In this document: piece by piece, positions 4,058 through 50,017 of the stretch | Layout: each line of letters opens with the position of its first letter | Position numbering within the stretch: the first letter of the stretch is position 1 | Source: an uncultured Nitrososphaeraceae archaeon | GTDB lineage: Archaea; Thermoproteota; Nitrososphaeria; Nitrososphaerales; Nitrososphaeraceae | Direction: 5' to 3' | DNA: 64,000 nt | Assembly (NCBI GenBank): GCA_963729045.1 | Contig: CAVSMN010000010.1 | Location: forward strand, 32,001-96,000 | Made by a program: the position numbers and the translations under genes | Notes under the pieces: generated by a model | Database searches by the model: none | What the model was told of the DNA's origin: nothing | The model's input: only the letters and a program-made list of their open reading frames with translations

Positions 4058-4074
4058 CAATAGATGTTTAGAAA

Positions 4075-4882
4075 TCACTTATAGTGATTGATGCTAGTGT
4101 GTTCCTTTAAAACTTGTCTTGAGTCAAATGTTTGTCCACACGTTTCACAGGAAAAGGTTGCCTTTACATTTGTTGAACTTTCGTCTGAATTTCTTCCACT
4201 ATCAACTTCGAAACTATTCTGGCTACTTTGATTGACTGATGAACCTTCGCGTGTATGATTATCTGAATCTACCTTTGTCATTCCCCTCTTACGATATTCC
4301 TCTTGTGCTTCTGGCGTATCTGTACCAGTTTGTCCGCCTGAAGTAATTTGTTGATCATTGGGATCTCTCTTTACTGCTGTTGGTTCACCTGTGTTAATTT
4401 TAGCAGGAGTCATAGGTTCTTTATCTCTATACTCTTCTAAAGGATTGTCATTTCTACTTGTATCAGTACCAGGTCCGCCTTCTTCGTATATTCTATCTCC
4501 ACCAGAAGACTGTGCATGTCCGACAGAAGATGAAGCTATTGTATCTTTTGTCTTATTTGCGACATCTTTCGTAGTATCTACTACCTTGTCTTTAACATCA
4601 CCTAGCTTATCAGAGATACTGTCAAGAACTGATTCGCCGTAGTTCTCCCTTTTTTGTTCAAACATTTTAAGTTCGGATTCAGGTACTTTTCAACATTAAT
4701 TGTGTACCGTCATAGCCTTCAATCTTGGATTTCGGGATTGTGTATACATTTTCACTTACTTTATCTTTTTCTACTATAATTGAGTCATCTCTTTCACCAA
4801 TTATGTTTCCTACAATTTGACGATCTGATAAAACTACACCTTTTTTTGATACGATTAATTCTGAAAAATCTATATTTGACAC
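4075..4882 (-). CDS. PRC-barrel-like domain + LEA/hydrophilin-like region + C-terminal C2H2 zinc finger (one frameshift near 4688)
   Basis: Removing one A from the AAAA run joins 4679..4882 (IDFSEL..KKGV..IVGNII..YTIPKSKIEGYDG) to 4075..4665 through LKVPESELKMFEQKR. Contains KDKVVDTTKDVANKTKD and CETCGQTFDSRQVLKEHTSINH. Confidence 0.75.
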
Positions 4883-5125
4883 GTTTAATTTGGTTCATAT
4901 AACTATATAAGGGTCATAATTTTTCAAATATTCATCAAAAATTAGATTTATCTCGATTAATATGGAAAATGACTGTTGCTAGTTACTACTTTTATATATT
5001 CTGCTCTACATTCATTACAAGCCCAGTATCTCAAATACAATCAGAGTATGCTACATTAGGTTGGACTCTAAAGTATTAGTAATCCTAATTATGGTACTAT
5101 ACAAACCATTTGCAACAATATAGTA

Positions 5126-5713
5126 ATGAAAAATCTTTCAAACATGTTTATGATTTTTCTAATCGCAGTTGGATTAGTAATAGTTCCTGTAATTAGTATG
5201 AATTCTGTAAATAGCGTGAATGCTCAAAATCAAAATCAAAATCAAACTTCGACACCAAATTCTCAAAATGATACAATGGCAACAATCACTGATAACCCTC
5301 AAACTACAATTGCAAATCAAACTACCATACCAGCAGAACAAACCACAGTTACTGTCAATCAAACGATTAACCCTATGGACCAATCTCAACTTCAACCACT
5401 TAGAATTCAGACAATAACATCTCAAACTGGAAACTTATCAAATATAGAAAATAAAACGGTAGTACAGACCACAGGTCCCGTCACTACTACTATTGCAAAC
5501 AAAACAACAGTACCGTTTAATCAAACTACTATGAGTATGGACAATATGACAAATTCCCAATCACAGGTATCCCCTTAACAGCAGCAGCAGCAATCGAGTA
5601 GTAATCAAACTGAAGGCGGATCATCGACTCAACAACAACAATCACCACCCCAAAATCAAAGTAAAGGACCGTTAGAACAACTTGGAGAATCCGTTAATAA
5701 AATGATAGTAGGC
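5126..5713 (+). pseudogene. secreted Q/T/N-rich protein (paralogue of 13825..14399) with a premature in-frame TAA at 5576-5578
   Basis: Signal peptide and TIANQTTIPAEQTTVTVNQT motif. The frame continues past TAA into QQQQ...KGPLEQLGESVNKMIVG, matching the paralogue C-terminus. Confidence 0.7.
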
Positions 5714-6232
5714 AGGGTTGATATAGAAACTACTATCTCTCTTCGACATTTGTATTTTATTATAATCTTTCTTTTATGTAAATTTTATCCATAAATTAAA
5801 TAAATAAACCAATACCTGCGACAAATACCATGATAATATCATTAGATATTAGACAAATTGCTGATATGTTGATAATATGATTAACATATCTTGGGTCAAC
5901 GTTTATAGCGCCACCCTGTTGGGCGGCGTGGATATTTACGATTGAACCAAACTAATCGGTTAAATAGACAACCCTTATCACTCTTCTCGATAATGTTCAC
6001 ATTCTTAGCATTACAATAATATTGTTGCCAAGGATCCATACCAAGAGAACTATTCTATATTTATGGCTGAAAGCAAATCTAATAATCAGCCATTCTTTTT
6101 ACAATGTACAATAGAGATAACATGCAGACATAATGAGATAACAACAGACTCACAATCCTGAAAAATCCTGGACAACTTTTCTCAATGTTGTATCTGTTAT
6201 ATAACATGATGAACATCAGAATGTGAAAAAAA

Positions 6233-6493
6233 ATGAAGAAAATTTTAGTAATCGCGACTTTTGTTCTGTCATTTGTACTGACAGCATCACTAGTTAGCAA
6301 TTCAATAGTCCAGACGGCATTAGCTCAGGACTTATCCACTCTTAAAGATGAGGCAACAAACTTGCTGACAGGAAATGATAATAGCCAAAGAACAAATAAT
6401 AATTCAGCATCATCAACAACAAATAATTCTACTTCATCTGACTCATCCCTAACAGAAAAAGCAACTGGCTTAATAGGTGGATTATTAAAATAG
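6233..6493 (+). CDS. small secreted Ser/Thr/Asn-rich protein
   Basis: Signal peptide MKKILVIATFVLSF..ALA/QD, low-complexity linker, amphipathic C-terminus. Confidence 0.7.
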   Translation: MKKILVIATFVLSFVLTASLVSNSIVQTALAQDLSTLKDEATNLLTGNDNSQRTNNNSASSTTNNSTSSDSSLTEKATGLIGGLLK

Positions 6494-6526
6494 AAGACTA
6501 TCAAATCTAAAATAAAGTAAGTAAAT

Positions 6527-6838
6527 ATGCTACCTGATGAAGTTTCTCCTGAGGTACGAGATAGTCCATCTTGTTGTAAAAAGTATGATGGAAAAAACAA
6601 GAAGTAATTTGACAAGTCCTGTGGAGTTAGAGCAAGTTTACTTAGAGGCTTATAGGAGAGACACCAATAAAAAAATGTCCATTCAAATATAAAAATCCGC
6701 CGTCATGTAAGAGATATTTTACTTAGAAACGGCTATATTTTTGTTAATCCTGATGATGCAGAAGATGTATTCATCACGAAAAAAGCAATTGATCAATATG
6801 AGTTGATTAGGATGACTATATCTCTTGCCTGGTATTAA
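6527..6838 (+). pseudogene. hypothetical protein, frameshifted
   Basis: MLPDEVSPEVRD/VHLVVKSMMEKTRSNLTSPVELEQVYLEAYRR/NIKIRRHVRDILLRNGYIFVNPDDAEDVFITKKAIDQYE is protein-like across 3 frames. Confidence 0.5.
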
Positions 6839-6889
6839 ACACCAATTGATACCTGTGTTTATATAGTATATTGATTACGAATCCTTACA

Positions 6890-7518
6890 ATGTCTAAAAA
6901 CGATAAAAAAGAAATTAATGACCAAACTTCATCTTAGTTAACAAAAATATCGAGAAGCAGCAAGATATTTACCAAAGTAATCAAAGATTATATAATAGAA
7001 TTATAGAACAAAACAACGAATCACTTGAACAAGTTTTCGATGAGTCAAAAAAAAATATAGATGAAAGTATCAGAGAAGCAAGAAATCAGATTCCACGTTA
7101 TACTGAAACTGTTAATCAAGTTCAAGAACAAACACTTCAAGCTACTAAAGATATTGCAGAAAGCTATCTTGAATATCAAAGACAAACAATCGATTCTTTT
7201 CAATCAATATCTACCCCGTATATATACAATGTAAATAACCAATTATTGAATAACCAAGATTACTTTAGAAGAATACCAGAAATATACTCAAAATTAGTAA
7301 ATAATTATGCAGAAAATACAATAGCAATGAGTAGAATTTTTAATGATATGGCATTTTCTAATATTGAATTATTTAAAAATGTAGTTGATAACACAAAGAA
7401 ACAATCTAAACATCTTGCAGAAATAGGAAAAAGAAATGTATCAGCATATGAGAGAATCGAAAGAGACAGCAACGATGCATTATTATCAACTCAAAAAGAT
7501 CATCAGTCTAAAAATTAG
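6890..7518 (+). pseudogene. alpha-helical phasin-like protein, broken near the 5' end
   Basis: ATG6890 MSKNDKKE..* then a long frame IEKQQDIYQS...EARNQIPRYTETVNQVQEQTLQATKDIAESYLEYQRQ running into the tracked ORF 7246..7518; similar to 36132..36641. Confidence 0.55.
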
Positions 7519-7878
7519 AAAAGAAAAATAAAATAATCTTTTCTTCTTTATTTCTATCAATATTTCATTTTTTTATAGTTTATAGGAATCTCTACTAAAT
7601 CTCATGAAATGGGGTAAATTGATCATCCAAGTCTGCTATTCTTCTGGATTACCATGAATTATGACTAATTGATAAACTATTCAATAATACGAAACAAGGA
7701 GGTTAGAAGCGTTACTATAAATAGATAGCTTCGTTCGGTGGGACAGCTTATGAAATTTCAGACTAGTCTGTAATTGGGAAAACCATCGCAGGTTGTACTT
7801 ATTTATCACTAATGGCTTATTTAAGCTATTTGAGAATATTTAGGATAACTTTATTATATTGCACGATATCCATAAGTC

Positions 7879-8071
7879 ATGACATTAAGTCTAAACTGTA
7901 AAGATGCAGGTGATCCTGTTTGCACTCATACGATGTATGGTGAAACTGAGGAAGAACTTTAGAGAATGCAAAAAAACACTTATAGAGGCTCACGGATATA
8001 CAGAAGAGACATTTAATGAACGAACCGGGAAAGACAAGGAGAACTTTAGAAAATTAATAAAAACTACTTAA
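7879..8071 (+). CDS. DUF1059-family small metal-binding protein (frameshifted)
   Basis: MTLSLNCKDAGDPVCTHTMYGETEEEL/ENAKKH/IEAHGYTEE has the C-x-D-x-G..C...GETEEE..H..H pattern. Confidence 0.7.
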
Positions 8072-8368
8072 CTTTTATGTCGCAATAATTTTTTTCAGAG
8101 ATAAGATCGAACCAATTCCTGTAAAATATGCAAGGACAAAATAAACTAATTAGTTTGTTTCTCCATCTTTCACAACACAATGATTCTATCAATTTGTAGT
8201 AATTTAATTACGATCGAATTTATGAGAATCTATTTTAGTTGCCCATTACTATATTGATTTCAATAATTATATGGAAAAATATTAATTTACTTTACAATCC
8301 TCATGCATAAGAACTGATTTATTATTTAAGACAACTTGTAACACTCGAACTAACTTTATATTGGAAGA

Positions 8369-8767
8369 CTATATCACTTCCTTAACCGAATTATCGTTTT
8401 CTACCTTGGTCATTCCTCTTTTTCGATATTCTTCTTGTGCTTCTGGAGTATCAGTCCCCGTTTGACCTTCTGCTGGTAATTATTTGGTCCGTTGAATCTC
8501 TTTTTACAGCCTTTGGTCCCTCCACTTTTAATTTAGCAGGAGTCATTGGTTCTTTATCTGAATATTCTGTTAATGGATCGCTTTTTCTGTTTGTGTTTGT
8601 GCCAGCTACACCTTCTTCATATTCTTTATCATTAGAGATTGTTGATGTTCTTAGTGATGAATCCACCGTATCCTTTGTTTTTTCGGCAACATCCTTTAGT
8701 AGTATCAACCACTGTATCCTTTGCGTCCTTTGACTTTTTCTTTGAGTTTGTCAATAATTTCTCCCAT
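8369..8767 (-). CDS. LEA/hydrophilin-like protein, paralogue of 4075..4665 (frameshifted)
   Basis: MGEIIDKLKE/VKDAKDTVVDTT/KDVAEKTKD...YEEG.AGT.T.R..DPL.EY.DKEPMTPAK.../DTPEAQEEYRKRGMTKV, shared with the 4075 protein. Confidence 0.75.
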
Positions 8768-9247
8768 TGATAATACAATTATTATTTAACATACTATAAA
8801 AACAGGGCTCAAATGGAGAGGGCTTTTTTTCAAAGGGTCAAAACAAAAACATTTTACTTAAGTTGTATGGATATAATGATTTCTAATTTATTATTTTAAA
8901 ACTATAATATGAAGTTGTTTCTGTAATCAGAATCAGTAATAAAGTTATTAAACTATTATTTACAGTATTTAGTAATAATACTAAACTAATACCCGTTACT
9001 ACGGCAATACTATCACCTAGTAAACTCTAGTATATATCTACAAAAGTATAATGATATTATATTATGAATCCAGATTTGATCTCGGTAGTAGGACAAAATC
9101 AAAATCAATACTATATTTTCTGACAGGAAATATAGTTAATTTATATAATCCGATAGTTTTTCTGAGATTTTCATGGTAATTATTATTCGGACTTCTTTGG
9201 TAGAAGTATTTTAAGTATGATATACTTTACTTTATGTATACAATAGA

Positions 9248-10460
9248 GTGGTTGCACATTTCAAAGTCTTAATGGTTTGTACCGAATATCCTCCCATGCA
9301 AGGTGGTGTTGGTCGCTATACTCACAACTTGGTTAAATCATTGCGCTCAAATAGTATAGACATCCTTGTTGTATCTAGTTCTGATGGTTCGGGAGACTAC
9401 AAAGGCATTTCACCACATAACAAGGACAATTCAGAGCTATTATTGAAATTAGTAAAAGAGATCAAGCCAGATATAGTACCATGTACAACACGAGTTCGGA
9501 CTGTATGGCTTTTTCTTAAATTCTCTACGACCTTCTAAATCATCAACAGGTCTTGACGAATTCTATGATAAATGTACGATCCCAATAGTAACCACATTTC
9601 ATACATCAATGTATTTTAAACAATGGATGCAATTAATAAACATAAAAGAAAAAGGTAATGATAATGACTATCTGAGATTTTACTCATTATATAAATACTG
9701 GCGACATTTTATTAATTATTCTTCTATGCATAGAATCAACAAATACCTTATGGCTAAGAGTGCTTATGGAATAGTTCTTTCAAATTACATGAGGGAACTC
9801 ATACCCGGAACAAAGGTGGTATATCATGGATCGGATCCATATTTCAAAACTGGCATTACACGCATTGAGGCGAGGAAGAAAATGCATCTTCCAGAGAAAG
9901 GAAAGCTTGCATTAGCTCAAGGATTCATTACCAATACTAAAGGATGGGATGTAATAAGAAAATTAAAAATGCCAAAGGATTGGAAGTTGGTGGTAAACTA
10001 TTCAAAGAACTTTTATAATAATGAAAAAATCAATTTTGAATATCATGACAATAAAGTGATTAATTTAAACAGAAGATACCTATCTGAAGAAGAACTCTCT
10101 TTATTGTTCTTTTCTTGTGATGTAGTATTCTTGCCCTACAAGGTGTGTTCTGGTTCAGGTATAATGTATGATGGCTTGGGACATGGACAACCGTTTGTGG
10201 CTTCTGATCTAGGTTTCTTTAAAGAGTTCTCAACACAAAATCTGGGTATTGTAACAAAGAGAGATCCTCATACATTCGAAAAGGCGTTTGAACAAATGGA
10301 TAAACAATACCTATTTTTCAAATCTAAAGTTAAAGACTTTCAAAAAAACTTACGCTGGGATAAAATAGCAGGACAACATATAACTATATACCAAAACATA
10401 ATAAAAGACGAAACACTAGAATCACAACCGGTAGAAATGATTCGTAAAAATAAGAGTTGA
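9248..10460 (+). CDS. glycosyltransferase family 4 (GT-B), one frameshift near 9480
   Basis: VLMVCTEYPPMQGGVGRYT N-terminus; DVVFLPYKVCSGSG..G.PFVASDLG C-terminal motif. Confidence 0.85.
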
Positions 10461-11352
10461 ACATACAGAATCATCCTGCCTTCAATTGTGAACTAATATA
10501 TGACAAGTAGAAAATCTCAGCTAAAGGGTTCTCTAAAAGAAACAGATGGGAACGTACGATACAGCAGGAATTCAGTGGGGTTCGAATCCATGAGGTATAT
10601 AGGACCTGTTATTTTAATAAATATTTGTAAATAAGAGTGGCTTAGTAATAGATGGATCATGGGTCTGTATTTTCAAAATATTCTTCGTTTAAATGTAATA
10701 TTTTCTCACTCTGTTAAACACAATAACTATGAAACTATCATACTGTCTGATTTAATGAAACTTGTCTAACAATCCCGAATTTTATCTACAGGGATCTACT
10801 TCATTTTATGGCATTATATGTTGGTTTTTTTAGAACTGGATTCAAAATACTGTCGTCATCATCTTCCGATCAATCAACGAATGGAAATAAAGGATATGTT
10901 GGAATATTATCGTCATCATACACATCTACTATCACTTACCTGATTTGTCAAATTGATATGCTTGTTTTTGGGATAGAATTATACTCCTTTTGTTACTTCA
11001 TACGCGTACAAATGGGCGACTGGAATATTGGGACAATACTTTTCAAAATACAATGACAATGATTCTAAATGTTGTTCATATATTATCTAATTATAACGGT
11101 TTTCTACTTCAAGTAATTTTTTAAACATATAAAATAATTTTTTCAAATCTTTAAATTTGAATAAATGATATAAAGCCAGACGGAAATGTGATAATACGGA
11201 TTGACATATTGATATATGCATTAATTCCAAACCGTAAAGAAATATCTCATATTTTTATTACTAATTGAATATATACACTATTAATAAACTATCATGAACA
11301 ATCAACTCAATGGTGAGGAAATCTAATTTCACCTAATGATTATGGCCAATTA

Positions 11353-11905
11353 ATGAATGCGAGAGAAGCAGCAGAGACTATTTCACAAAGTGAATATGGA
11401 CTGCATTGTTTACTAATTTATCGTGATCTTACTACTCTAAGAGAATTTTATTCTAATTATGTTCAAAAACAAATCAATGATAATGAAATGATTCAAATTA
11501 TGCCATTTTATGAAACAGAGAACTCTGTTAGAGAAATACTGTCAAAGAATTGGACCGCCGATCTTCATATGGTCCAAGAGGAGGAAAAATCATTGATCAT
11601 CGTTGATTCTTTAAGAGGATATCTTGATCATGATAATGTCGAATCCATTTGGAAAAATATTGAAGAAAGGGTCAACTATGCTAAAGAATTAGGTAAAAAG
11701 GGAATTTCCATATTAGGTGATGCGGGATGCATTTCTCTTTAAACATAAAATACAAAGTCTTTTGGATTACGAATGCTATTTGCCATTAAAATTTGAGAAT
11801 AATCTTAAGGGCATTTGCATGTATCATCAAAAGGATTTTAACAAGATATCCAAAGACTTTCAACAAAAAATAATAGATAGTCATTCAAAGACTATAGTGA
11901 TATAA
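11353..11905 (+). CDS. MEDS-domain sensor protein (frameshift near 11730)
   Basis: HCLLIYRDLTTLREFYS...GISILGD.../LLDYECYLP..GICMYHQKDF...IIDSH is typical of thaumarchaeal MEDS proteins. Confidence 0.75.
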
Positions 11906-11961
11906 ACAAGCCAACCAACCAATATCCTGATTTCTTATTTTTATTCTACTATAGTGTGCGC

Positions 11962-12341
11962 TTATAGAGATTCATTGAGCATTAGTCTCAAATCAGAAAA
12001 ACGGACGGGTTTTTGAATTAGTATATCTATTTTTGCCTTTTTAAAATCCTCGTTATTTTTTAAATCCACTATATCAAAAGCAGTCATCAAGAAAATTTTT
12101 ACTTTATTATTCATCTGTCTTATATTTTTTGCAAGATCTATTCCACAGATATCGGGCTTTCTCAAGTCCGTTACTATCAATGAATGTTTATCGGAAGTTT
12201 GCTTAAAATATTCAAAAGCCAAAACCGGGTCGGTGAAAGAGATTACATTGTACCCTTCGTTTCTCAAAAATCTTTGAAAAGAGTTACAAGTTCTAGTTCA
12301 TCATCCACTATAAGGATGGAATGTGGAGATAACTTTGACAA
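11962..12341 (-). CDS. stand-alone response regulator receiver (frameshift near 12267)
   Basis: The upstream frame gives ILIVDDELELVTLF; then VTDLRKPDICG (phospho-Asp), MTAF and QKP. Confidence 0.85.
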
Positions 12342-12739
12342 TAGGTATTGCTTTTATCAAAAATATTTAACTTTATCGAAATTATAGTCTTGCTCATATA
12401 ATTCTTGAATATAAGGGCACATAAATGAAGCTCAAATCCTATTTTAAAGCATTCATGATCATTACTTATATGAATCTCAAAAATATACAAACAATCTCCT
12501 TATCTTTAGTAAATTTCACTCATCAAGTGACTCTATCTTATTATTATAGAATTGTGATCAAGGCATAAATTTACTACAGTAATATAAAAATTAATAAAAG
12601 CCGAATTTTTCCTATTTTAATTCTTTTAACATATTTAATTAAGCTAATTCCCAGACGGCAAATGGATTCTATCAAAAATTTTACTCGATACAACACTTTA
12701 ACAAGATCTTTCAAATCATTTCCTTTAGCCTGATATTCT

Positions 12740-13018
12740 TTGCAAATTTATACCTGTGTATTAACCTATATTGACCAACTATTTTTGATGATAATTCATA
12801 TAATTTTACTAATATTGACTGTATCTTTCTCAACAGATGGCCTTGGCACAATTTATGCCCATCAAAACATTTCTGAAGAAATTTATAAGATGTTCGGTAA
12901 TTTGACACCGGATTATCTTGGATTCAAAAATTTCTCGTATGAACGACCTGGCGGTTTCTCAATAAGTTCCATGCCAAGCATCAATACAAGTAACAATTCA
13001 ATAACTGGTACACAATGA
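12740..13018 (+). CDS. hypothetical, possibly secreted protein
   Basis: Hydrophobic segment followed by IYAHQN and a polar tail; start uncertain. Confidence 0.3.
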   Translation: MQIYTCVLTYIDQLFLMIIHIILLILTVSFSTDGLGTIYAHQNISEEIYKMFGNLTPDYLGFKNFSYERPGGFSISSMPSINTSNNSITGTQ

Positions 13019-13430
13019 TATTGGTCAAAGTTAGATGGACAAAGTTATTTTCTAGTAATTGAACATTTGTCAAAAAATTGTAAAAAAGAGCATCATTGTG
13101 AGAAAGCTAAAATTTTTCTGATATTTTTTAAAATACTAAACGCAGCTGCCTGACCACATAGAGATACTCAAATCTTTGTTTTTAAGGTTTGGAAAGGAGA
13201 GGCATCAAATAAGAAAATGTTTTCACATATCTTTATATTAATAACATTTACGACCAAAGAATAAAAATTAAATCTTAATAAATATTACTTGATGTTTTTC
13301 TAAAATATTATGGTTGATTCGTTCACTAAGAATTCGTAAGTCTGTTTATCATGTTGATATCTCATAAGGATTGTACTTTTATATCTCTGTCCAGATGGAA
13401 ACACAACTAATTATAATGATGTCTTCTAAC

Positions 13431-13494
13431 CAGAGATGAGGAATAGGGAAAAGCTGATGCACCTAACATATGAACATCTTATTCCTCATCTCTG
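13431..13494. repeat. perfect 15-bp inverted repeat (long hairpin)
   Basis: CAGAGATGAGGAATA (13431-13445) and TATTCCTCATCTCTG (13480-13494). Confidence 0.85.
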
Positions 13495-13824
13495 AGTAAT
13501 GTAGTTGTCCCTTCGAGTCTTGTAGAGGTAAATATCTAGGTTTAAGATAGTATTTAATGACAATAATAAAACAGAATACATAGGGAAGAGGCAACAACAA
13601 CACAACCTCGTTAAGTTGGTATATGGACTAATATTTACCTCAATCCCACAATGAAATCCGCTGCTTGTATTCTAATATAAAATGTATACGATAGTTTATA
13701 ACCATAATAAAGTGAGATAGAGAAACTGTAGCCACAGATTGGATTCCATATTCTTACTGTTAAACCATCTGTAGTGATGTGCTAATTTATTAGCTATTTA
13801 AGTAATAAAACATAAGACCAGATA

Positions 13825-14399
13825 ATGATAAGATCAAGTATACTTACTCTCTGTGCTATTGCACTTTTTGCTAGTCTTGTATTCACAGGAATAGTTTATG
13901 CACAAAACCAAACCCAAAACCAGACATCGTCTCAGGCTGCATCACAAAACGAAACTATGGCCACTGTGACTGACAAACCTCAAACGGTAATAGCAAACCA
14001 AACTACTGTTCCGGCTGAGCAAACAACAGTAACAGTTAATCAAACAACTGAACCAATTAAAGATCAATCTCAATTACAACCACTACAAAACCAGACTATA
14101 TCTTCTCAAACTGGAAATCTATCTAATATAGAGAATAAGACAATGGTACAACCAACTGGACCTGCAACCACAGTTATAGCGAATAAGACAACAGTCCCAT
14201 TCAATCAAACTACTATAGGTATGGATAACACAACCAATTCACAAACACCATCAGCAGGACAAGCTCAACAACAACAAGCTCAACAACAAAATCAATCAGG
14301 ACAACTCAACAACAACAAGCTCAACAACAAAATCAATCTAAAGGTCCTATAGAACAAATGGGAGAGTCTTTAAACAAGATGATAGGCGGAGGCAAATAA
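13825..14399 (+). CDS. secreted Q/T/N-rich low-complexity protein (frameshift inside a Gln-rich tandem repeat)
   Basis: Signal peptide ending VYA/QN, many N-x-T sequons; the shifted frame ends KGPIEQMGESLNKMIGGGK*. Confidence 0.8.
14255..14337 (+). repeat. 42/41-bp tandem duplication encoding GQAQQQQAQQQNQS
   Basis: CAGGACAAGCTCAACAACAACAAGCTCAACAACAAAATCAAT followed by a copy lacking one G. Confidence 0.85.
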
Positions 14400-14887
14400 T
14401 CTTATACTTATTTCTTACAATTCGTTAGCATTTATTCAATACCGTTTTTCATTATTTCATCAATTTGTAAACAATTAATTATATTAGTTAAGTTGGCAAT
14501 TTGCACGCACTAGGAGAAGAGCGAAGATGATGTTATACATCAAATTTCATGCTATCGACTATAATGTAGAGATGGAAAATAATCAGAATAACTCAAAAAT
14601 CGACTTGTCCATATAGAATTAGACTAATTGAATATCAAGTAACAGAACAAGGCTTGCTATCTGAAATAGATGCAATAATATTTGATGTTTGGAAAATGTA
14701 TGAATTCATAATAGTCAGACAATTAATTGTTACCCGCGTCAATCAACTACATGGGATGTGTAAATTCAACAGCGATTAACGATGTTTATAGTATTTTCTA
14801 ATTTCTGCATGATATTACCAACAGATACATCATCCCGATAACTGATAGTACATGTATATAAACTATTATTAATAAAGTTTCTTGGAT

Positions 14888-15055
14888 ATGCTTGGAACAC
14901 TTTGGACAATTATTTTGATTATAATAGCAATTATCGTCATAGTACTGTTACTACGGTTTCTTTTTGGAATATTAGTTATAGCTCCTGTAGGGATGGAATT
15001 CGTTAAACCTGGCACAACTACCGATATAGCATGGTCAATAGTTAATGGCATCTAG
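14888..15055 (+). CDS. small membrane protein (55 aa, below the ORF-track cutoff)
   Basis: MLGTLWTIILIIIAIIVIVLLLRFLFGILVIAPVGMEFVKPGTTTDIAWSIVNGI*; AT-rich TATA-like sequence upstream. Confidence 0.6.
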   Translation: MLGTLWTIILIIIAIIVIVLLLRFLFGILVIAPVGMEFVKPGTTTDIAWSIVNGI

Positions 15056-15630
15056 TTAGTTGACGAAATGGCACCTGGGTTAGAACACCTATTGTAGAAT
15101 GTTACTAAGATTAAATGGTTATAACATACCGTATTTTGTATTCTATTTGCCATCATAGTAAATAGTGTTATCGGGTTCATTATCTCGATGATTGTCGATA
15201 AATATTATTAGCATTATATTAGATCTAGAGATGAAATGATTCTTCTTAAAAAATATACAAGCAAATGAAATAGGACCATAGCATTCAGCTCTGTCCTACG
15301 GGAAACCCGTCGACATCAAGTAAATTTCACGGTGTTCTCGATAGGGCATTAAGAAAAAGATATATCAATTAGGAAAAATTTTTCAATGTCTTTCATCACG
15401 CAAGAATTGCGATAACAGAATTGATACATGAGCCTATAATTACAGTAATAATAAAATATCAAATATTGTAAAAGATGTGAATAAGTAGGAATAACAAATC
15501 ATCTTTGTTAATTACCCTCTCGTGGTAATTTGATATATAAAATAAAACCTTTTTTCAAACTAATACAACCTCGGTGATTAAGGGAGTGATTGTATGTCCC
15601 TTCAAGTTTTATTAGAAACTTTTATCTAGA

Positions 15631-15660
15631 GTATTACCCTTTATAGTATTACCCTTTATA
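15631..15660 (+). repeat. perfect 15-bp tandem repeat upstream of a YsnF gene
   Basis: GTATTACCCTTTATA twice. Confidence 0.85.
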
Positions 15661-15708
15661 TTATACTACCTTATTTATCTATTTATAGCATGTTATATTA
15701 AATATTTT

Positions 15709-16392
15709 ATGAGCTCAAATATTGATTGGACGGATGTCATCAAAAAGGAAGCCAGAGGCATTAATGATGCTGATTTTGGTGAGGTTCAAGAACTAACAAC
15801 TGAATTCGTCATAACTCAGAGAGGATTGATTGATGTAGAAGTATTTGGCATACCCAAAGAAAGGGCAGAAAGTTATGATGGAAGCGTATTGCGATTTAAT
15901 GTTTCTGAAGATGAAGCTTTCAGTAAATATCGAGAAGGCGGAGAAGATACCGCTGAAACACTTTCACAAGAAGAAGAGGTTTCAACTATAGACGAGATGG
16001 AAACTCAGTTACAATCCAACCAAGATAATGAAACAGAGGAATCAACTACGGTACCTCTCATGGAGGAAAGAGTAGATATTTCAAAAAGAATCGAGGAAGA
16101 CACTGCTACTATAACCAAAAAACCAATAACAGAAACCAAAACAATAGAAGTACCGATAACTCATGAAGAAATAGCAATTGAAAGAAGGAAACCTTCTGGA
16201 GAGCAAACTTATACCGAACAAAAACCAGTCACCTCTCAAGAAGAGATAGAAATACCAGTAAAGAAAGAAGAAATTGAAGTCAACAAAAGACCATATGTTA
16301 AAGAGGAATTGGTGGTAAAAAAGAAACCAGTAACTGAAACAAAAGAAATTACAGAAGAAGTGACATCTGAAATGATACCTACAGAAGATTAA
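15709..16392 (+). CDS. PRC-barrel-like + YsnF/AvaK (DUF2382) domain protein
   Basis: IDWTDVIKKEARGINDADFGEVQE N-terminal domain; VPLMEERVDISK...VPITHEEIAIERR...IPVKKEEIEVNKRPYVKEELVVKK. Confidence 0.9.
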   Translation: MSSNIDWTDVIKKEARGINDADFGEVQELTTEFVITQRGLIDVEVFGIPKERAESYDGSVLRFNVSEDEAFSKYREGGEDTAETLSQEEEVSTIDEMETQLQSNQDNETEESTTVPLMEERVDISKRIEEDTATITKKPITETKTIEVPITHEEIAIERRKPSGEQTYTEQKPVTSQEEIEIPVKKEEIEVNKRPYVKEELVVKKKPVTETKEITEEVTSEMIPTED

Positions 16393-16665
16393 AAATAATA
16401 CTATTCTTCTTGGTGGTAGAAATTAATTTATCTGGTTCTAATTTTATGAGTATTGAACATAGTTTTTTAACATCCTATATACACTTTAAGTTCCCACACC
16501 AGATAAATTTATTTTTTGTAAACTTTACTAGTTTGTGCAACATATGAAATAAAATTTTAGTTATTATGTATTAAGGCTATCTAGTATTTGAACATAGTAT
16601 CAAAGTATAAGTCAGAATATTATATCGCATAAAAGTCAAAAGTTATGGGGGTATTGTATTTCCGC

Positions 16666-17346
16666 CTATCTTGGAACTTTTACCTTGAACTGGCTTAATC
16701 TATCGTAGGTTGTATTTAGAACTACCTCTTGTCCATTGTAGGATTGAATTTCGTTTTTTGGTATACTAAATTCATCTTTAGCACCATCAGAAGTTATTAT
16801 TACATTTTCATCGTTTACTGCTGTAACAATGCCTACTGCTACAGAATCCCCTGTCCGTGCACCCTTTTTGAGAACAGAGTCCCAGTCTTGTATGCCCGCA
16901 TGAGGCCTGGTATACGATGCATCAGTTCCGACACTATCTATTTGTCTTTTCTCAATGAGAGGAATATACTTTTGAAGATCTCGCGAAGATTCTGATTGAT
17001 CGTATGTTTGTGTGTCGGGTTGTTCTGTTACGGATGCTGACTTGTACCTTGAATACTCACCCATCTGTGGTGGTTCATCTTTTTTGAAATTGTCTTCAGC
17101 TTCTTGTTCGGTTATATTAAACCAAAGAACTTCCCCATCATAACCTGCAACTAATACTTTAGGTAAATAAAATTTGTTTTTATTGAGTCGACCTCTTTCT
17201 GTTACAACAAATTCCTGTCCGATTTCTTGCACCTCACCTAAATCATCTCCTTTCTCATATCCTCTTGCTTCTTTTTTAATAATGTCTTTCCATTCTATGC
17301 TATTATCTTTCCAGTTAAAATTACTTGAATTAGTATTATTGTTCAT
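16666..17346 (-). CDS. protein with two PRC-barrel-like domains
   Basis: WKDIIKKEARG..DDLGEVQE..YLPK..GYDGEVL and WDSVLKKGART..VGIVTAV..IPKNEIQSYNGQEV. Confidence 0.85.
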   Translation of the reverse strand: MNNNTNSSNFNWKDNSIEWKDIIKKEARGYEKGDDLGEVQEIGQEFVVTERGRLNKNKFYLPKVLVAGYDGEVLWFNITEQEAEDNFKKDEPPQMGEYSRYKSASVTEQPDTQTYDQSESSRDLQKYIPLIEKRQIDSVGTDASYTRPHAGIQDWDSVLKKGARTGDSVAVGIVTAVNDENVIITSDGAKDEFSIPKNEIQSYNGQEVVLNTTYDRLSQFKVKVPR

Positions 17347-17772
17347 AATCTAAATTGATTAATAAAGTATTTAACAGCCAGTATTAGAATAATTTAGTTT
17401 ATCTGAAGATTAAACCAAAAGTTACAAATTTATTTTTCTGTTAAAAACAAAAAAAAGAACAACATACTATTAATATGCAACAACGGTTATGAATAAAAAC
17501 TAATATGTTGTCATCGGTTGCATTGCTATCAAAAGTCGTTTGCAATATACCCAGTGCTCATTCTATTACTGTTACGAACACATTCAAACATATCCACATC
17601 CCAGAGAAAAACTTGAGATTCCAAAATAGTCATTGTTGGATTTTTCTGAAAGATTTATTTAGAACAAACGTAGCGAATCAAAGAGAGAAACATTGTCAAA
17701 CTAATACATTAAGAATCAGCATGGTAAGACATTATTGTTAATAATAGTAAAAGTAACAGGTCTAGCTATCCT

Positions 17773-18190
17773 CTAGAATGGAGAATAAGCCTTGATGACA
17801 TCAATAACGCCGCCTAGTAGGCAGCACTTGACAGTAAAATTACCAATACAACCATACAAAATATCGAATTGGAAATCTTTCAATATTTTTACTCCTGTAA
17901 AATAATAATGATTGCTTTCTGATTGATATTTAACATTGACGTTGATTTTTCCACTATATCTTTTTGTATATTTTTGTTTGTTGTCTAGATGGAAAAGGAT
18001 CGCAAATATTATTTTGTACGTTAAGAATCCCGTTATTACCGTCAATGCGGAGTTAAGCACATAATTAGTGAAATACTGAGCAGAAAAGTGTGCAATAATT
18101 ATACTTGACAGAAACCCTATCGTACCCGAAAAAAGTAGATTTTTATTTAAAGATATCGTGTAGTATATTTCTGATAAGACTGTAGGAGGA
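17773..18190 (-). pseudogene. truncated membrane protein
   Basis: The frame extends upstream of the tracked ORF (LNKNLLFSGTIGFLSSIIIAHF..NSALTVITGFLTYKIIFAILFHLDNKQKY) and then degenerates. Confidence 0.45.
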
Positions 18191-18322
18191 ATTCACTTAT
18201 TTTATGCATTATTGCCGTCACAGTAATATGTCTTGAATTGTTTAATATGTTATTTAACCATCAACAATATATTATTTCTAGGTATTAATGCAATAAATAA
18301 GAACAATTAATACTTAAATTTA

Positions 18323-18613
18323 TTATTGATTCTTTTGTTCGTTTGAAAACTCTTTCGCGGTATCTACAACAGTATCTTTAACTTCTAAAGCTTTTTGTTT
18401 AGCCTGGTCCAATATTCCATGTTTCTCATTACCGTAATTTTTAAGATCATTTTGCTTCTTTTGTACCTCATATTGTATGTATTTCATATCTTTGGAGTTA
18501 ACGAAAACCGGATATCTCTCAAATGTCGCTACCTCATTATTTTCTAGCCTGATCTCAATCTTACCTATTCCCTTTTTTATTTGGTCGGTATTTTCTTCTT
18601 TAATTTTGATCAA
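18323..18613 (-). CDS. hydrophilic protein with a LEA-like C-terminus
   Basis: GILDQAKQKALEVKDTVVDTAKE resembles the 4075 and 8767 proteins. Confidence 0.55.
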   Translation of the reverse strand: MIKIKEENTDQIKKGIGKIEIRLENNEVATFERYPVFVNSKDMKYIQYEVQKKQNDLKNYGNEKHGILDQAKQKALEVKDTVVDTAKEFSNEQKNQ

Positions 18614-19020
18614 TAATTTAGGTGTATATCACAGTTAATAAATATGATAAAAACAAGATGCGATATATAAAAGATGGACGGTATAATTTTTTGGGAAATA
18701 ATATAAATTCTTATCCATACAGATTGAGCATCACGATGTGTTGATAAATATGGATTCGATACTATTATGCTGGAGAATATTGAAATACCCTTTGTCATAA
18801 ACTAACTTTAAATTCTCATCAAAAATTAATACAGGGTATTTAATATGATACTTCACCTACTAACCACTAAATATGGTAATTAGTAAATACACTATCTTAC
18901 TTTTATTTAGGATTAAACAAGTGTTGCTTTAGTGTATTTAAGAAAAACAAGTACAAAAATCAACAGATAATACTCAGAGGTATGGTATACCATTATAAAT
19001 ATTAATAATATAAAGTACCT

Positions 19021-19770
19021 ATGAATAACGAGTCTATAGTCCCGCATGACAATAAAATTACACCTGTTAATGATAGTCCTCCTTCCATAGACACTAAATC
19101 CCAGCAGGAGGAACTAATTGTAGAAAAGATTCCAATCTATGAAGAAGAATTTGATATTTCTAAAGAGACTACAAAGACACAATTGTATTTAGAAAAAAGA
19201 TGGATAAAATCAACAAAAAAGATTGAAGTCCCCATCAATTATGAGGAGATGTTTATCAATGGAAAAGAATTTGACTCCTACAGCCACAATGAATTAGTCG
19301 AGATTTTTTCAAAGGTAAAGGAAAAAATTTCAGAAGTGTTTCATCCTAGCCAAACTGAAGGAGATGAAGAACTACCCGATAAGATAGTGAATAGAGATGA
19401 TCGCCATTATCCAAATGATCTGGACATAAAGATACACGAAAACGAGGAAACAATAAAAGCAAAAATGAGCCAGACCGATTATGAATCTAGTCAGAGTGAA
19501 AAAAGGCCACCACTACCCAATTCTGAAGCTAGTGTAAATAATAATCAGATTCAAGTTTCTGATAATAACAATAACAATAATGACTCTGAAGAAGAACAGG
19601 TTATTCCTATTTGGGGAGAACAAATAATAATAGATAAAAAAATGGTAAAGCTCGGCGAAATAGTTATTAAAAAATCTCGAATATCCGAAAAGCGCAAGGT
19701 AGGTGTAGAAGTCAGAAAGGAAAAAATTACTGTCAAATATCCTGATGGCAAGAATCAAGAAATTACCTAA
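19021..19770 (+). CDS. YsnF/AvaK (DUF2382) domain protein with an acidic insertion
   Basis: IPIYEEEFDISK...EVPINYEE and VIPIWGEQIIIDKKMVKLGEIVIKK..EVRKEKITV. Confidence 0.85.
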   Translation: MNNESIVPHDNKITPVNDSPPSIDTKSQQEELIVEKIPIYEEEFDISKETTKTQLYLEKRWIKSTKKIEVPINYEEMFINGKEFDSYSHNELVEIFSKVKEKISEVFHPSQTEGDEELPDKIVNRDDRHYPNDLDIKIHENEETIKAKMSQTDYESSQSEKRPPLPNSEASVNNNQIQVSDNNNNNNDSEEEQVIPIWGEQIIIDKKMVKLGEIVIKKSRISEKRKVGVEVRKEKITVKYPDGKNQEIT

Positions 19771-19812
19771 TATTTAGAACATGAATATATAATATGTTAT
19801 ATAGAAAAATTT

Positions 19813-20590
19813 GTGACTACTAAGGATGAATTATTAAAATCTAAGAATATTAATCTCGACGACATCATAAAGAAAGAAGTCATAGGAATTGATGGGCTAG
19901 ATTTAGGAAAAGTAATAGAGATAGGGGAGACGTACGTTGTCACCCAAAGAGGTTTAATAGATAAGAAAAAATATCATCTCCCAATTTCATCGATAGAAAG
20001 TTTTGACGGAGAATTTTTGAATTTGAAGATTAATGAGACTGATTTAAAAAGTTATGAACAAACAGAGGATAATTTATTCGAAGGATATTCTTCTTTTAAA
20101 TCTTCAGACATGTCACATGAAGTACAGACAACTATTCCATTAATAGACGAGAAATTAGAAGTAACTAAAAAGACTATCGAAGAAAACATGCAAATAATAA
20201 AAGAACCCATAAAGGAAACGAAAATTGTAGAGATCGAGCTAATACACGATAAAGTTACAATAACGAAAAGACCATTCAAAGAAAATAATATTGCAAAGAA
20301 AATCGAATCCCACAGTCATAAATTAGAAAGTAATTCTTCAGATAGCCAGATAGACAAAAGAAGAAGAAGAAGAGGATATGAGGAACTATGATGACACTAC
20401 TGAAATAATTATGACACTTGAAAGAGAAGAACCCATTATAGTTAAAAGATCCCATGTCAAGGAAGAAGTGATAGTAAAGAAAGAAACTTTATTTGAAACA
20501 AAGACAATAACAGAAGAACTAATTCATGAACATATGAAATCTAGTGATATCGAACCTACAAGAGTAAAAGATAGGAATACATCAAATTAG
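19813..20590 (+). CDS. PRC-barrel-like + YsnF (DUF2382) protein (frameshift at AAAA before a GAA run, about 20357)
   Basis: LDDIIKKEVIG..DLGKV..YHLP..FDG; IPLIDEKLEVTKK; the second frame gives LEREEPIIVKRSHVKEEVIVKK. Confidence 0.85.
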
Positions 20591-21214
20591 CCAACAACAG
20601 GATGCTACTGCATTTAAATCGTAGTTTGATAAGTCTAATGATAGAATATAGGCATTGTAGTCCGATATATTTTAGAACCTCTTCACATGGTAGAATTAAT
20701 CCGTATTTATTAAATCGGTCGTTATTTCATACTGCAAAGATATTATGGTTTTTCTTACATTATTGCATATTTCATTGATATAATATTATAGTCATCTTCA
20801 ATTTCCTTATTTCTCAAATACTATTTTGGTCATCATTTTAAAATAGTTTTTTGTCTATTTGCTCCATGTACTTTTCTTGTTTGTTAGAAGTATTGTCATT
20901 ATCCATATTAATTTAAAATCACAATAACTTTAATTATTCGCACAGCGTCGGATTTCATATGCATTGGGCATAGTATTCAAGCTGAATCTGCAAAATTCTT
21001 GATAAATGAGAATAGACTAAAATGAGATTTAAGGTCATCTAATGAAATAAAATCTAATATTTTAAACTTAAAAAAAGTCAAGACAAATAATTGTCCATAA
21101 TTGTCAAAAAAATAAATTTCAAAGTATCTAGATGGTTGTAAAATACAAGAATATAGATACGTGAAATTAGAATTTTATCAACCATATATAATTTGTTAAA
21201 TAAATACATTCAAT

Positions 21215-21973
21215 ATGTCATCTGAAAATGACAATGAAATTAATTGGAATGAAGTTGTAGGAAAAGAAGCACTCGGAGAGAATGGCTTAGACTTTGGTAC
21301 GATTAAAGATATATCGGATGACTATATCGTTACCGAAGTAGGTATGCTTAAAAAGAAAATATACCACCTACCAAAGAGTTCTGCAAAATACTTTAACGGA
21401 GTTTTCCTAAACTTCTCGCTAAATGAATCAGACCTTTCAACTTATGAACAAAAGATTGGAGAAGGTGCCTTTAATGAAGATTCTTTTTCCGGATTACAGG
21501 ATATGCCAGCAAAAAAAGAAATGTTAATTCCTTTGATCAGTGAAGATCTAAAAGTAACCAAGACAATTATTGAAGATAATATAAGAATTGTAAAAGAACC
21601 CATAAAGGAAACGAAAACTGTGAAAATTGAGTTGATGCATGAAAAAGTAACAATTGAAAGAAGAGATGTCAGCATGAATGACGATAGGCTTGACAAAGGA
21701 ACAAATATTAATTTAAATAATAGTAAGACCTCTAATCAAGGACCTAACCAGGAATCGGATAGCGAAGGTTCAATGTATTCAAAGACTGAATTTTTGATTC
21801 CAATCAAAAAAGAGGAACCATTAATTACAAAAAAATCATTTGTTAGAGAGGAATTAGTAATAAACAAAAAACCAATAACTGAAACTAAAACAATAGCAGA
21901 AGAAATAACTAAAGAAGAAGTTAAGTACGACAATCAAGTGATAGAAAAAACTAAAGATGGAATACCTCTATAG
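21215..21973 (+). CDS. PRC-barrel-like + YsnF (DUF2382) protein
   Basis: INWNEVVGKEALG..DFGTI..YHLPK..FNG; IPLISEDLKVTK..HEKVTIERR..IPIKKEEP..VREELVINKK. Confidence 0.9.
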   Translation: MSSENDNEINWNEVVGKEALGENGLDFGTIKDISDDYIVTEVGMLKKKIYHLPKSSAKYFNGVFLNFSLNESDLSTYEQKIGEGAFNEDSFSGLQDMPAKKEMLIPLISEDLKVTKTIIEDNIRIVKEPIKETKTVKIELMHEKVTIERRDVSMNDDRLDKGTNINLNNSKTSNQGPNQESDSEGSMYSKTEFLIPIKKEEPLITKKSFVREELVINKKPITETKTIAEEITKEEVKYDNQVIEKTKDGIPL

Positions 21974-22313
21974 CATAAATATTATTTTGTTTTGTTAATT
22001 AGAATCATTTCTTATACACAACATTGATTATCAAGTATTTGAATTGTCTCTATTACTATAGCCAAAGGACCTTTAGAGGATCTTTTTTAATTGATGAGGT
22101 TTGACATAAATCTCTAAAAATGTGAGAAATTTCGATATTATTTGGTATCGAAATGGCTTGTTCTCTTATATCAATGATTCCCTTAAGATTTTATTACTAA
22201 ATTCGAGTCTCTCATCATAGATAATATAATGAATCTGACTGTGCTCTTGTCTTGTGAAAAAATAATAAACTATGTATTGATTATTTATGCTATGTTATAC
22301 ATATCATTTTACA

Positions 22314-22535
22314 ATGTCTGAAAATCAGGACAATGAAAAGACCGAAAATCGTGGGGAAAAACTTCTTGACGTTACCAATGAGTATAATGAAAATGAAAGA
22401 CCTCAAGATGAATCTGAGAGCGTTTTAGACGAAGCGGTAGATAAAGTAAAAGCAGGAACGAAAGCAGTCATCAACAAGGTTAAGGATTCTGAAAAAGACC
22501 TTGGTGCTGAATATAACAAAGAAAAGACAATTTAG
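22314..22535 (+). CDS. small acidic LEA/CsbD-like hydrophilin
   Basis: DEAVDKVKAGTKAVINKVKDSEKDLGAEYNKEK; paralogue of 52817..53023; ATG22314 preferred as the start. Confidence 0.75.
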   Translation: MSENQDNEKTENRGEKLLDVTNEYNENERPQDESESVLDEAVDKVKAGTKAVINKVKDSEKDLGAEYNKEKTI

Positions 22536-49846: not shown

Positions 49847-50017
49847 ATGATGTCTATGGACAATAATGATGAGAAAAATGGGGAAACATTGGATAGCGAC
49901 AAATTAAAAAAAGAAATGCTTAAACCTATAACCAAATCAAAAACTGAAGTAGACGAAGAATTAAAGGAGCTAGAAGTAGAAAGTTCGGGTGGTGGAAAAG
50001 ACGGTGGAGGAGGGTAA
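49847..50017 (+). CDS. small charged protein with a Gly-rich C-terminus (56 aa, below the ORF-track cutoff)
   Basis: MMSMDNNDEKNGETLDSDKLKKEMLKPITKSKTEVDEELKELEVESSGGGKDGGGG*. Confidence 0.6.
   Translation: MMSMDNNDEKNGETLDSDKLKKEMLKPITKSKTEVDEELKELEVESSGGGKDGGGG

Follow-up and report, generated by a model that had tools for sequence, protein, structure and literature searches.

The 64,000-nt stretch analysed here (the window; positions 32,001 to 96,000 of contig CAVSMN010000010.1, from an uncultured Nitrososphaeraceae archaeon) carries a set of genes in which a repeated domain of about 70 residues, hereafter P, occurs alone, doubled (PP), or joined to the DUF2382 domain, hereafter D (PD), alongside a D-only gene, a fusion of P to a LEA-like tail, and free small hydrophilic proteins (hydrophilins). 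The set is best classed with the stress proteins of the AvaK/YsnF kind, as an archaeal variant, and on balance we consider it probable that these proteins and the co-located hydrophilins are induced together for protection in drying or dormancy. New here are the module shuffling, the conserved cluster, the duplication within DUF2382 and a candidate promoter motif. We take the organism to be a Nitrosocosmicus-type ammonia oxidiser of the family Nitrososphaeraceae because of its gene content, which includes information-processing genes (PCNA, TFS, TFB, RNA polymerase subunit L and ribosomal protein S15) and plastocyanin-like and Rieske/cytochrome b genes, because the first PD protein (15709) shows an identity of 80% with a protein from Candidatus Nitrosocosmicus sp. 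T and of 75% with an N. franklandus protein, and because the public contig L034 matches window positions 13903-20973 with 97.8% DNA identity. The G+C content of the window is 29-38%.

An initial annotation, made from the letters alone, had proposed seven copies of P in six genes. A profile hidden Markov model (HMM) built from these copies and run on the 1279 six-frame open reading frames (ORFs) of at least 25 residues in the window recovered exactly the same seven copies in the same six ORFs, with domain E-values of 4.5e-28 to 5.5e-37 (2.6e-25 for the most divergent copy, at 4679-4882) and a next-best match beyond them of E = 0.076. The architectures were likewise as described: P stands alone at 51051-51284(-), in a 77-residue type-A protein (HMM 5.5e-37); is doubled at 16666-17346(-), where a type-A and a type-B copy, both matched by the HMM, flank a predicted disordered linker of ~45 residues; and is fused to DUF2382 at 15709-16392, 19813-20590 and 21215-21973, all on the forward strand. 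Residues I7, K15, G26, P51 and G60 are invariant in the alignment of the seven copies, which are 24-49% identical to that of the 51284 gene, and type-A domains start with W-x-D-[VI]-I-K-K-E-A-R-G. A quick tree of 137 P domains, with many forks unresolved, separates two deep types, A (108 rows) and B (29 rows); the 4882 copy and the second PP barrel belong to type B. Because each window copy groups in this tree with orthologues from other genomes, the paralogues are old.

P is predicted to be a divergent PRC-barrel of the DUF2171 kind. In an AlphaFold2 model of the 15709 protein, built from a 39-sequence alignment, residues 11-70 form six strands and a helix with predicted local distance difference test (pLDDT) values of 89-93, and the linker and DUF2382 lie below 50. 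Among the matches listed by Foldseek against the Protein Data Bank (PDB), all are PRC-barrel proteins; the best is 3htr, a stand-alone PRC-barrel protein (E = 1.3e-3, target template-modelling (TM) score 0.57; up to 0.63 overall), and the others include RimM C-terminal domains, the CdpB PRC1/PRC2 pair, reaction-centre H subunits, MTH1859 and CdvA. We take two of these entries, 1pm3 (MTH1859) and 2qgg, to be PRC-barrel proteins. The model of PP contains two barrels (pLDDT 80-90) and a linker, residues 104-148, below 50; in the PDB it is matched best by CdpB1/CdpB2 and further PRC barrels, three of them at E ≤0.001. A profile search of PDB sequences returned no solved relative of P or DUF2382, with one chance-level match (E = 0.6). 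The PRC-like character suspected from the sequence is thus supported at the level of predicted fold. Kinship to DUF2171 is likewise probable: within the window the best Pfam matches (PF09939, cut-off 25 bits) are 24.0 bits on the second PP domain and 14.5 bits on the 19813 protein, and some relatives of P exceed the cut-off.

These relatives were drawn from a search with the profile of the seven copies, which, run against 1.84 billion representatives, matched 1043 clusters at E ≤0.001; 59 relatives, taken from the 150 listed clusters and mostly longer ones, were scanned. Twenty of the 59 match DUF2171 (E ≤0.01), of which 11 exceed the cut-off (highest score 59.7 bits), and a single relative, which also matches DUF2171, passes the PRC model (35.4 bits). 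DUF2382 is carried by 22 of the 59, and one relative joins P to a Usp domain (32.8 bits, cut-off 24). In the Atlas, the clusters nearest the stand-alone P are named YsnF family, PRC-barrel or DUF2171 and come mostly from Nitrososphaerota; this gene has 372 homologues of similar length, the named ones being Nitrosocosmicus proteins called 'hypothetical', and of the 120 listed all but one lack a precomputed Pfam domain. P shares its predicted fold with small DUF2171/PRC-barrel proteins such as 3htr and CdpB1/CdpB2, but the window copies reach at most 24.0 bits and their fusion partners differ. The proposal that P is a shared module is borne out and extended: P has been shuffled, as a head, onto at least four tails, namely DUF2382, a second P, a LEA-like segment with a C2H2 finger and, in a relative, Usp.

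All four of the genes assigned to DUF2382 are matched by Pfam PF09557 (cut-off 23 bits). The score is highest for the first PD gene (15709..16392, forward strand; 65.8 bits, E = 5.2e-18), which encodes a type-A P, an acidic linker and DUF2382, and is also the only one above the cut-off of NCBIfam TIGR02271 ('YsnF/AvaK domain', 49.75 bits) with 58.5 bits, the others scoring 47 (21215), 34.1 and 20. The PD gene at 21215 encodes 252 residues (50.9 bits, E = 2.3e-13), and the D-only gene at 19021..19770 (forward strand) is matched in two stretches (43.8 bits, E = 3.5e-11) and has no P match; in both, the halves of DUF2382 are separated by a hydrophilic insert. In the fourth, the 19813 gene, the two halves reach 17.5 and 25.4 bits. 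Because the two halves of DUF2382 align with each other (hhalign 96%, E = 4.8e-9, 45 columns), the domain is, as judged from this alignment, a tandem duplication of a ~45-residue unit rich in E, K, T, V and P. In the 15709 protein this tail, like the linker, is modelled below pLDDT 50, and the grand average of hydropathy (GRAVY) of DUF2382 is -0.91. The P proteins are acidic and very hydrophilic and show no N-terminal hydrophobic stretch in their translations; by eye, the proteins of the set look cytoplasmic.

Two bacterial families frame these findings. YsnF of Bacillus subtilis (COG3861/TIGR02271) shares DUF2382/TIGR02271, and its public name is the one used for the Nitrosocosmicus orthologues; YsnF belongs to the sigma-B general stress regulon, whereas archaea are without sigma factors. 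The other is AvaK of the Nostocales. Since AvaKa combines an N-terminal PRC-barrel with a C-terminal DUF2382 (Kimura et al., PMC9804601), the PD genes have the AvaK architecture, the window match being made through PF09557, TIGR02271 and the predicted fold. As in the window, AvaK proteins are hydrophilic and occur as several paralogues per genome (in Anabaena, all4050 and all4051 are consecutive). The same article reports that loss of avaKa alone abolishes regrowth of Anabaena after drying, so that AvaKa is described as indispensable for dehydration tolerance, that each of the four avaK paralogues responds to salt and dehydration with induction by way of OrrA, and that avaK genes are enriched in terrestrial cyanobacteria; it also cites as an AvaKa homologue the bacterial protein DR1314 of Deinococcus radiodurans, whose mutant is sensitive to peroxide and heat. 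In addition, ysnF transcripts are reported to be raised in desiccated root microbiomes (PMC11985526). The window genes differ from AvaK in their archaeal host, in a barrel that is DUF2171-like and missed by the Pfam PRC model, in the further placement of P alone, doubled, and on a LEA-like plus zinc-finger tail beside a D-only gene, and in regulation, which would be archaeal (TATA/TFB) rather than through the OrrA response regulator.

Because of the AvaK architecture and the YsnF/AvaK names, we regard the PD proteins as archaeal members of a known, mechanistically unsolved stress family. The earlier statement that such a system has no characterisation in archaea agrees with our literature search, which, judged largely by title, found no work on an archaeal member of the AvaK/YsnF (DUF2382) family; the novelty is smaller than was implied, because the architecture is known from AvaK and the Nitrosocosmicus orthologues are already named 'YsnF/AvaK domain-containing protein' by NCBI and 'Stress resp…' in UniRef. 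An ancestral-genome study of ammonia oxidisers (PMC7554672) discusses LEA14/WHy and, in its available text, not these families, and none of the terms DUF2382, YsnF or PRC occurs in its 10 searchable supplements. The reading of the set as a stress or resting-state system gains its support from homology, above all from the shared architecture and dehydration phenotype of AvaKa (PMC9804601); a role in drying would follow from this homology and from the fusions.

The hydrophilic partners form a more heterogeneous group. The five ORFs first described as LEA/CsbD-like hydrophilins, and a sixth at 49847-50017, have GRAVY values of -1.05 to -1.45, whereas 17 housekeeping proteins encoded in the window average -0.15. 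Their hydrophilicity is therefore as stated, but membership of the LEA or CsbD families was not found with Pfam, and 'LEA/CsbD' is a compositional label only. The sole LEA_4 match (PF02987, cut-off 51.1 bits) is one of 13.8 bits (E = 0.056) on 18323-18613. CsbD (PF05532) gave no row at E ≤0.1 for the 4075, 8451 fragment and 18323 ORFs, or at E ≤1 for 22314, 52817, 18323 and 49847, with the qualification that the HMMER filters drop most matches above E ~0.1. YtxH (PF12732, cut-off 37.5 bits) gave none for the 4075 protein and 15.6-20.8 bits for the relatives P0422, P0426 and P0489. Hydrophilins are defined by a Gly content above 6% and a hydrophilicity index above 1; of the six, only 4075-4665 (8.2% Gly) and 49847-50017 (14.3% Gly) combine more than 6% Gly with a GRAVY below -1. 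The proteins thus resemble LEA-type and bacterial hydrophilins in being charged, with GRAVY below -1, few hydrophobic residues and sub-threshold LEA_4 and YtxH matches, but differ from LEA_4, YtxH, CsbD and ElaB/YqjD in that no curated threshold is reached and that three sequence-unrelated small families are involved, one of them fused to P and a C2H2 finger.

Individually, these are the 73-residue protein translated from ATG 22314 (feature 22284..22535, forward strand; GRAVY -1.45; all Pfam families below threshold), its paralogue of 68 residues at 52817..53051 on the reverse strand (the 53023 gene; GRAVY -1.33; phmmer to ORF 52817-53023, 7.8e-09), the sixth hydrophilin, of 56 residues with a Gly-rich C-terminus (49826..50017, forward strand; GRAVY -1.24), and a 96-residue protein within the cluster (18323..18613, reverse strand; GRAVY -1.09). 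The last shares a C-terminal motif with the LEA-like segment of the 4075 gene and has weak phmmer links to the 4075 and 8xxx ORFs.

The 4075 gene itself (4075..4882, reverse strand) consists of a type-B P, a LEA-like segment, an acidic low-complexity stretch and a putative C-terminal C2H2 finger, distributed over two ORFs (4679-4882, 67 residues; 4075-4665, 196 residues). The proposed fusion of P to a LEA-like region is correct in that close relatives carry P, LEA-like segment and zinc finger in one 268-residue protein, but in this assembly the gene is split by a frameshift. We treat the ORFs as one frameshifted gene because the closest homologues are single proteins of 264-290 residues spanning both, and because tblastn with the relative P0392 aligns 4882-4682 in frame -1 and 4689-4078 in frame -2. 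At the frame change, near 4682-4689, the window reads ACC TGA, and one base fewer would continue the frame as in the relatives. The C-terminal translation contains C-x2-C-x12-H-x4-H, which is kept in the six homologues compared (zf-C2H2 scores 17.1 bits, cut-off 25.2). One homologue is named 'ElaB/YqjD/DUF883 family membrane-anchored ribosome-binding protein' by the Joint Genome Institute (JGI), and PF28479 is assigned to three of 120 listed homologues.

Two further genes of the set are broken. The PD gene at 19786..20590 (forward strand), which starts with GTG at 19813, is divided into ORFs 19813-20391 and 20378-20590 by an extra A at ~20356, where the window has GACAAAAG and L034, with an intact ORF, has GACAAAG. 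The region 8375..8800 (reverse strand; '8767') is a degraded hydrophilin plus zinc-finger paralogue of the 4075 gene, with neither P nor finger; it has several frame changes and fragmented ORFs, P0426 and P0392 match it by tblastn in two different frames, and when its DNA is aligned with 4060-4900 a core is seen to be conserved, with indels. The two single-base events (4682-4689 and ~20356) are both extra bases in short runs and reflect either assembly error or recent decay. Elsewhere in the window, further pairs of neighbouring or overlapping ORFs, each pair in different frames, look like pieces of single genes: 60955-61419/61395-62561 (HerA HAS-barrel and ATPase), 9248-9538/9609-10460 (start of a GT4-type glycosyltransferase and a 283-residue ORF) and 11353-11742/11717-11905 (MEDS-like and a 62-residue ORF). 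Together, the split pairs and the two 1-nt insertions hint at an indel-prone assembly.

The resemblance of the barrel to RimM and the name given to the 4075 homologue raise a different explanation, in which these are translation or ribosome dormancy factors that tune or park ribosomes when growth stops, P acting as the RimM barrel does on S19 and the LEA-like segment as in the stationary-phase ribosome binders of the ElaB/YqjD type. RimM C-terminal domains are indeed among the top structural matches (2f1l, 3h9n, 7cq1, 3a1p), and in N. viennensis a PRC-barrel protein, NVIE_010650, is described as 'highly responsive to carbon limitation' and linked by its authors to ribosome maturation (bioRxiv 10.1101/2025.02.13.638070). 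However, the structural likeness is at the level of fold (8-19% identity), Pfam and NCBIfam find no RimM N-terminal domain or other ribosome-factor family in the P genes, the translations show no membrane anchor such as ElaB/YqjD possess, and the partner domain DUF2382 points to AvaK rather than RimM. We therefore regard this explanation as unlikely, and retain the AvaK/YsnF-type assignment.

Comparison with other genomes shows that the arrangement of the genes is conserved. A scan of related loci, using one genome per species and narrow patterns from a 3-sequence P alignment, such that absence elsewhere is not inferable, gave 79 loci with 46 P, 49 PD, 18 PP and 15 D-only ORFs. They are titled Nitrosocosmicus, Nitrososphaera, Nitrososphaeraceae, Nitrososphaerales or unclassified Thermoproteota, except for four Nitrosopumilus loci and one of Bathyarchaeia. 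The order PD, PP (on the opposite strand), hydrophilin, D, PD, PD recurs in other Nitrosocosmicus genomes (L034, L057, L067, L071 and L019), an arrangement newly described here; Nitrososphaera-type loci have D-PD-PD(-PD). Orthologues of the D-only gene occur in related loci, these five among them. The cultured species N. franklandus and N. oleophilus also have orthologues of genes in the set. The hydrophilins follow the same genes: the 18613 type lies within the cluster in six loci, the 53023 type 1.5-2 kb from a stand-alone P in six (L001, L003, L005, L007, L009 and L010), and the 49847 type adjoins stand-alone P orthologues in 10; the 4075-type gene is near PP or PD genes in six. The neighbourhood at 47-56 kb, including receiver-domain and TFB genes, is collinear in L001-L013.

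The exceptional titles belong to loci L009, L035, L039 and L071 (two metagenome-assembled genomes titled Nitrosopumilus sp.) and L030 (Bathyarchaeia). Their P, PD and PP genes are Nitrosocosmicus-like, with stand-alone P up to 86% identical and, in L009, the common neighbour order, and these contigs may be mislabelled or mis-binned.

A candidate regulatory link came from the aligned upstream regions of orthologues, which define a pattern of TATA box, 2 nt and WTGTT (strict form TWWAWD-NN-HTGTT). In the window, the strict motif lies 21-33 nt before eight family starts, including that of the degraded 8767 copy: 15709 (15682-15694, starting 27 nt before the ATG), 19813 (19786-19798, before the GTG), 21215 (21185-21197, which extends that feature to 21185..21973), 22314 (22284-22296, 30 nt before the ATG), 49847 (49826-49838), 51284 (51299-51311, 27 nt before the ATG, extending the stand-alone P to 51051..51311), 53023 (53039-53051, 28 nt before the ATG) and 8767 (8788-8800). 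Eight of the 10 window matches located 20-35 nt before an ORF of at least 40 residues precede family genes, and by our own arithmetic ~0.03 placements would be expected at the 12 family starts, compared with the eight observed. A looser motif is found in 7 of 11 family upstream regions and 4 of 50 others. Across the 79 loci, the strict motif precedes 69/166 family ORFs versus 15/321 other ORFs of at least 150 residues; with the earlier spacing the strict pattern had given 4/166 and 8/321, respectively, and the spacing was then reset from the window matches. TGTT after a TATA hexamer at -27/-28 occurs in 59/116 family and 11/148 other ORFs. Several of the motif-bearing 'other' ORFs are homologues of the Asn/Gln/Thr-rich protein encoded upstream of the cluster. 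The motif spans at least six gene families, and its constant position, 27-28 nt from the start codon, is in keeping with leaderless transcripts, judged from general archaeal promoter geometry. We present the TATA + WTGTT signature, newly described here, as an exploratory lead to co-regulation, which would link P, PD and three unrelated hydrophilin families.

Ahead of the first PD gene (15630..15694, forward strand), the signature is preceded by a 15-nt tandem repeat at 15630-15664 (unit AGTATTACCCTTTAT), present in 2.3 copies in the window (Tandem Repeats Finder) and four in L034. TATTAC[CT] repeats are retained upstream of orthologues in other species, and the repeat may be a variable-number operator or enhancer-like site. 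The first upstream candidate considered as a shared element, TWACCCTTWWTA, was rejected, having 7 matches compared with 6.3 expected and corresponding to this local repeat before 15709.

Beside the stand-alone P and hydrophilin genes at 47-56 kb stand a TFB paralogue (53769-54680, forward strand), a single-domain response regulator with a receiver domain (50333-50731, reverse strand), and a 178-residue protein (53112-53648, reverse strand; collinear in L001-L013) with a sub-threshold ribbon-helix-helix match (16.8 bits, cut-off 20.5). These three are possible regulators of the set. A bolder extension, to which we give little credence, is that TATA + WTGTT marks a dedicated stress or dormancy regulon of soil ammonia-oxidising archaea, an archaeal equivalent of the bacterial sigma-B general stress regulon, read by one of the numerous TFB paralogues, with P as the common docking head for different tails. 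WTGTT lies just downstream of TATA, where eukaryotic TFIIB reads the downstream recognition element; the reader would perhaps be the paralogue at 53769-54680 beside the P/hydrophilin mini-cluster, and the P head would bring the DUF2382, LEA-like plus zinc-finger, and Usp tails to the same cellular target.

For the AvaK/YsnF-type set as a whole, and beyond the domain identities, predicted fold, fusions, gene order and motif placement, we infer a mechanism of stress induction, docking and shielding. The P, PD and hydrophilin genes would be switched on together, through the leaderless-type TATA + WTGTT promoter class, when water activity or growth falls. The P barrel might then attach the protein to a partner, or to further P domains, by analogy with precedents among PRC barrels such as CdpB1/CdpB2, RimM with S19 and the reaction-centre H subunit. 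Proteins, membranes or nucleic acid could be shielded in drying by the hydrophilic tails and by the free hydrophilins, as has been proposed for LEA-type proteins.

Several observations weigh against this reading. AvaKa is itself called a protein of unknown function, and the biochemistry of DUF2382 is unsolved in bacteria too (PMC9804601). No window copy of P matches the Pfam PRC model (PF05239), and its DUF2171 score stays just below the cut-off; the Foldseek E-values are modest, with no PDB match at or below 0.001 for the PD (15709) model, and the PP model (predicted TM score 0.37) gives no confident barrel-barrel packing. No hydrophilin reaches the Pfam threshold of LEA_4, CsbD or YtxH, and the Atlas returned nothing firm for the 53023 hydrophilin, its matches being unnamed clusters together with one YtxH-like lead at 0.87. 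Of the six P genes two are broken in this assembly, as is one of the hydrophilin genes, which, if real, argues against strong selection in this strain. The synteny is documented within one lineage, so common descent may account for it rather than selection to keep the genes linked. The motif was defined post hoc, after the family had been seen, and orthologous promoters are not independent; its total in the window equals chance (21 versus 18.0 ± 4.1 in shuffles), and the PP and D-only genes are without it (0/15 D-only ORFs in the loci).

Some of these points are what would be expected if there were no coordinated system at all, the genes being old clustered paralogues with unrelated small neighbours, some of which are perhaps not genes, and the promoter pattern being the strong leaderless promoter usual in this AT-rich genome. 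Consistent with this, the promoters of non-family genes have some preference for T and G at the same positions (T 0.57, G 0.36), the strict motif also occurs on the 15 non-family ORFs mentioned above, and the age of the paralogues means that their clustering could be historical. The 4075..22535 interval offers a similar argument: the family genes of the proposed island are present, but the interval is not homogeneous, with a glycosyltransferase, a MEDS-like ORF, a receiver domain and two Asn/Gln/Thr-rich putative secreted proteins interspersed. Against this explanation, the placement of the motif is far from random, it crosses unrelated families including the hydrophilins, the hydrophilin ORFs are conserved across species (6-10 loci each), and one gene joins P physically to a LEA-like hydrophilin, as a relative joins it to Usp. 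A mere accumulation of paralogues and neighbours therefore seems to us improbable, and co-induction of AvaK/YsnF-type proteins with hydrophilins is preferred. Least probable is a structural or cell-division role, with the PRC-barrels polymerising like CdpB1/CdpB2 or acting with Cdv as CdvA: chains of the CdpB1/CdpB2 heterodimer are the best match of the PP model (8qzo, E = 2e-4 to 1e-3) and CdvA is among those of the PD model (9s9g, 9s9i), but the likeness is again at fold level (8-17% identity), ammonia oxidisers already possess a separate CdvA, no other cell-division family was found among the window ORFs scanned with Pfam, and the fusion partners are of stress type (DUF2382, Usp, LEA-like) rather than coiled coils or ESCRT-binding tails.

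Soil Nitrosocosmicus-type oxidisers face a changing water supply, and to our knowledge nothing is known of how they survive drying. The gene set is a concrete candidate for such survival, given its relatedness to the one DUF2382 protein that has been shown to be required for dehydration tolerance, and the promoter signature could define the whole regulon. The archaeal genes also offer a second, distant lineage in which to work out the roles of the DUF2382 tail and the barrel head. If a specific TFB paralogue does read the element, a mesophilic archaeon would provide a clear example of factor-specific promoter classes.

Other features of the window are of more local interest. The Asn/Gln/Thr-rich proteins at 5126-5578 and 13825-14352 (both on the forward strand) are paralogous, with a hydrophobic N-terminus (putatively secreted or anchored) and no Pfam family; in L031, L046 and L029 their homologues directly precede the first PD gene and carry the TATA + WTGTT signature. 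The idea of a mobile island was set aside, since the small ORFs at 22.8-24.1 kb and 3.4 kb match no integrase family and ARAGORN reported no tRNA. At 48325-48382 (forward strand), for which ARAGORN likewise finds none, there is a partial Rfam tRNA match (32 bits, model positions 10-63), which may be an intron-containing or split archaeal tRNA gene. A phasin-like protein of 169 residues (36132-36641, reverse strand) has a TATA + TGTT-like promoter with longer spacing, and a second small C2H2 zinc-finger protein is encoded at 59289-59591 (reverse strand). Finally, the 198-residue open frame at 6922-7518 (forward strand) resembles phasin and apolipoprotein-like families (amphipathic helices), in each case below threshold. 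The related ORFs of L031, L068 and L055 exceed it in length; that in L031 also matches the C-terminal zinc-finger region of the 4075 gene, and those in L031 and L068 carry the promoter signature.

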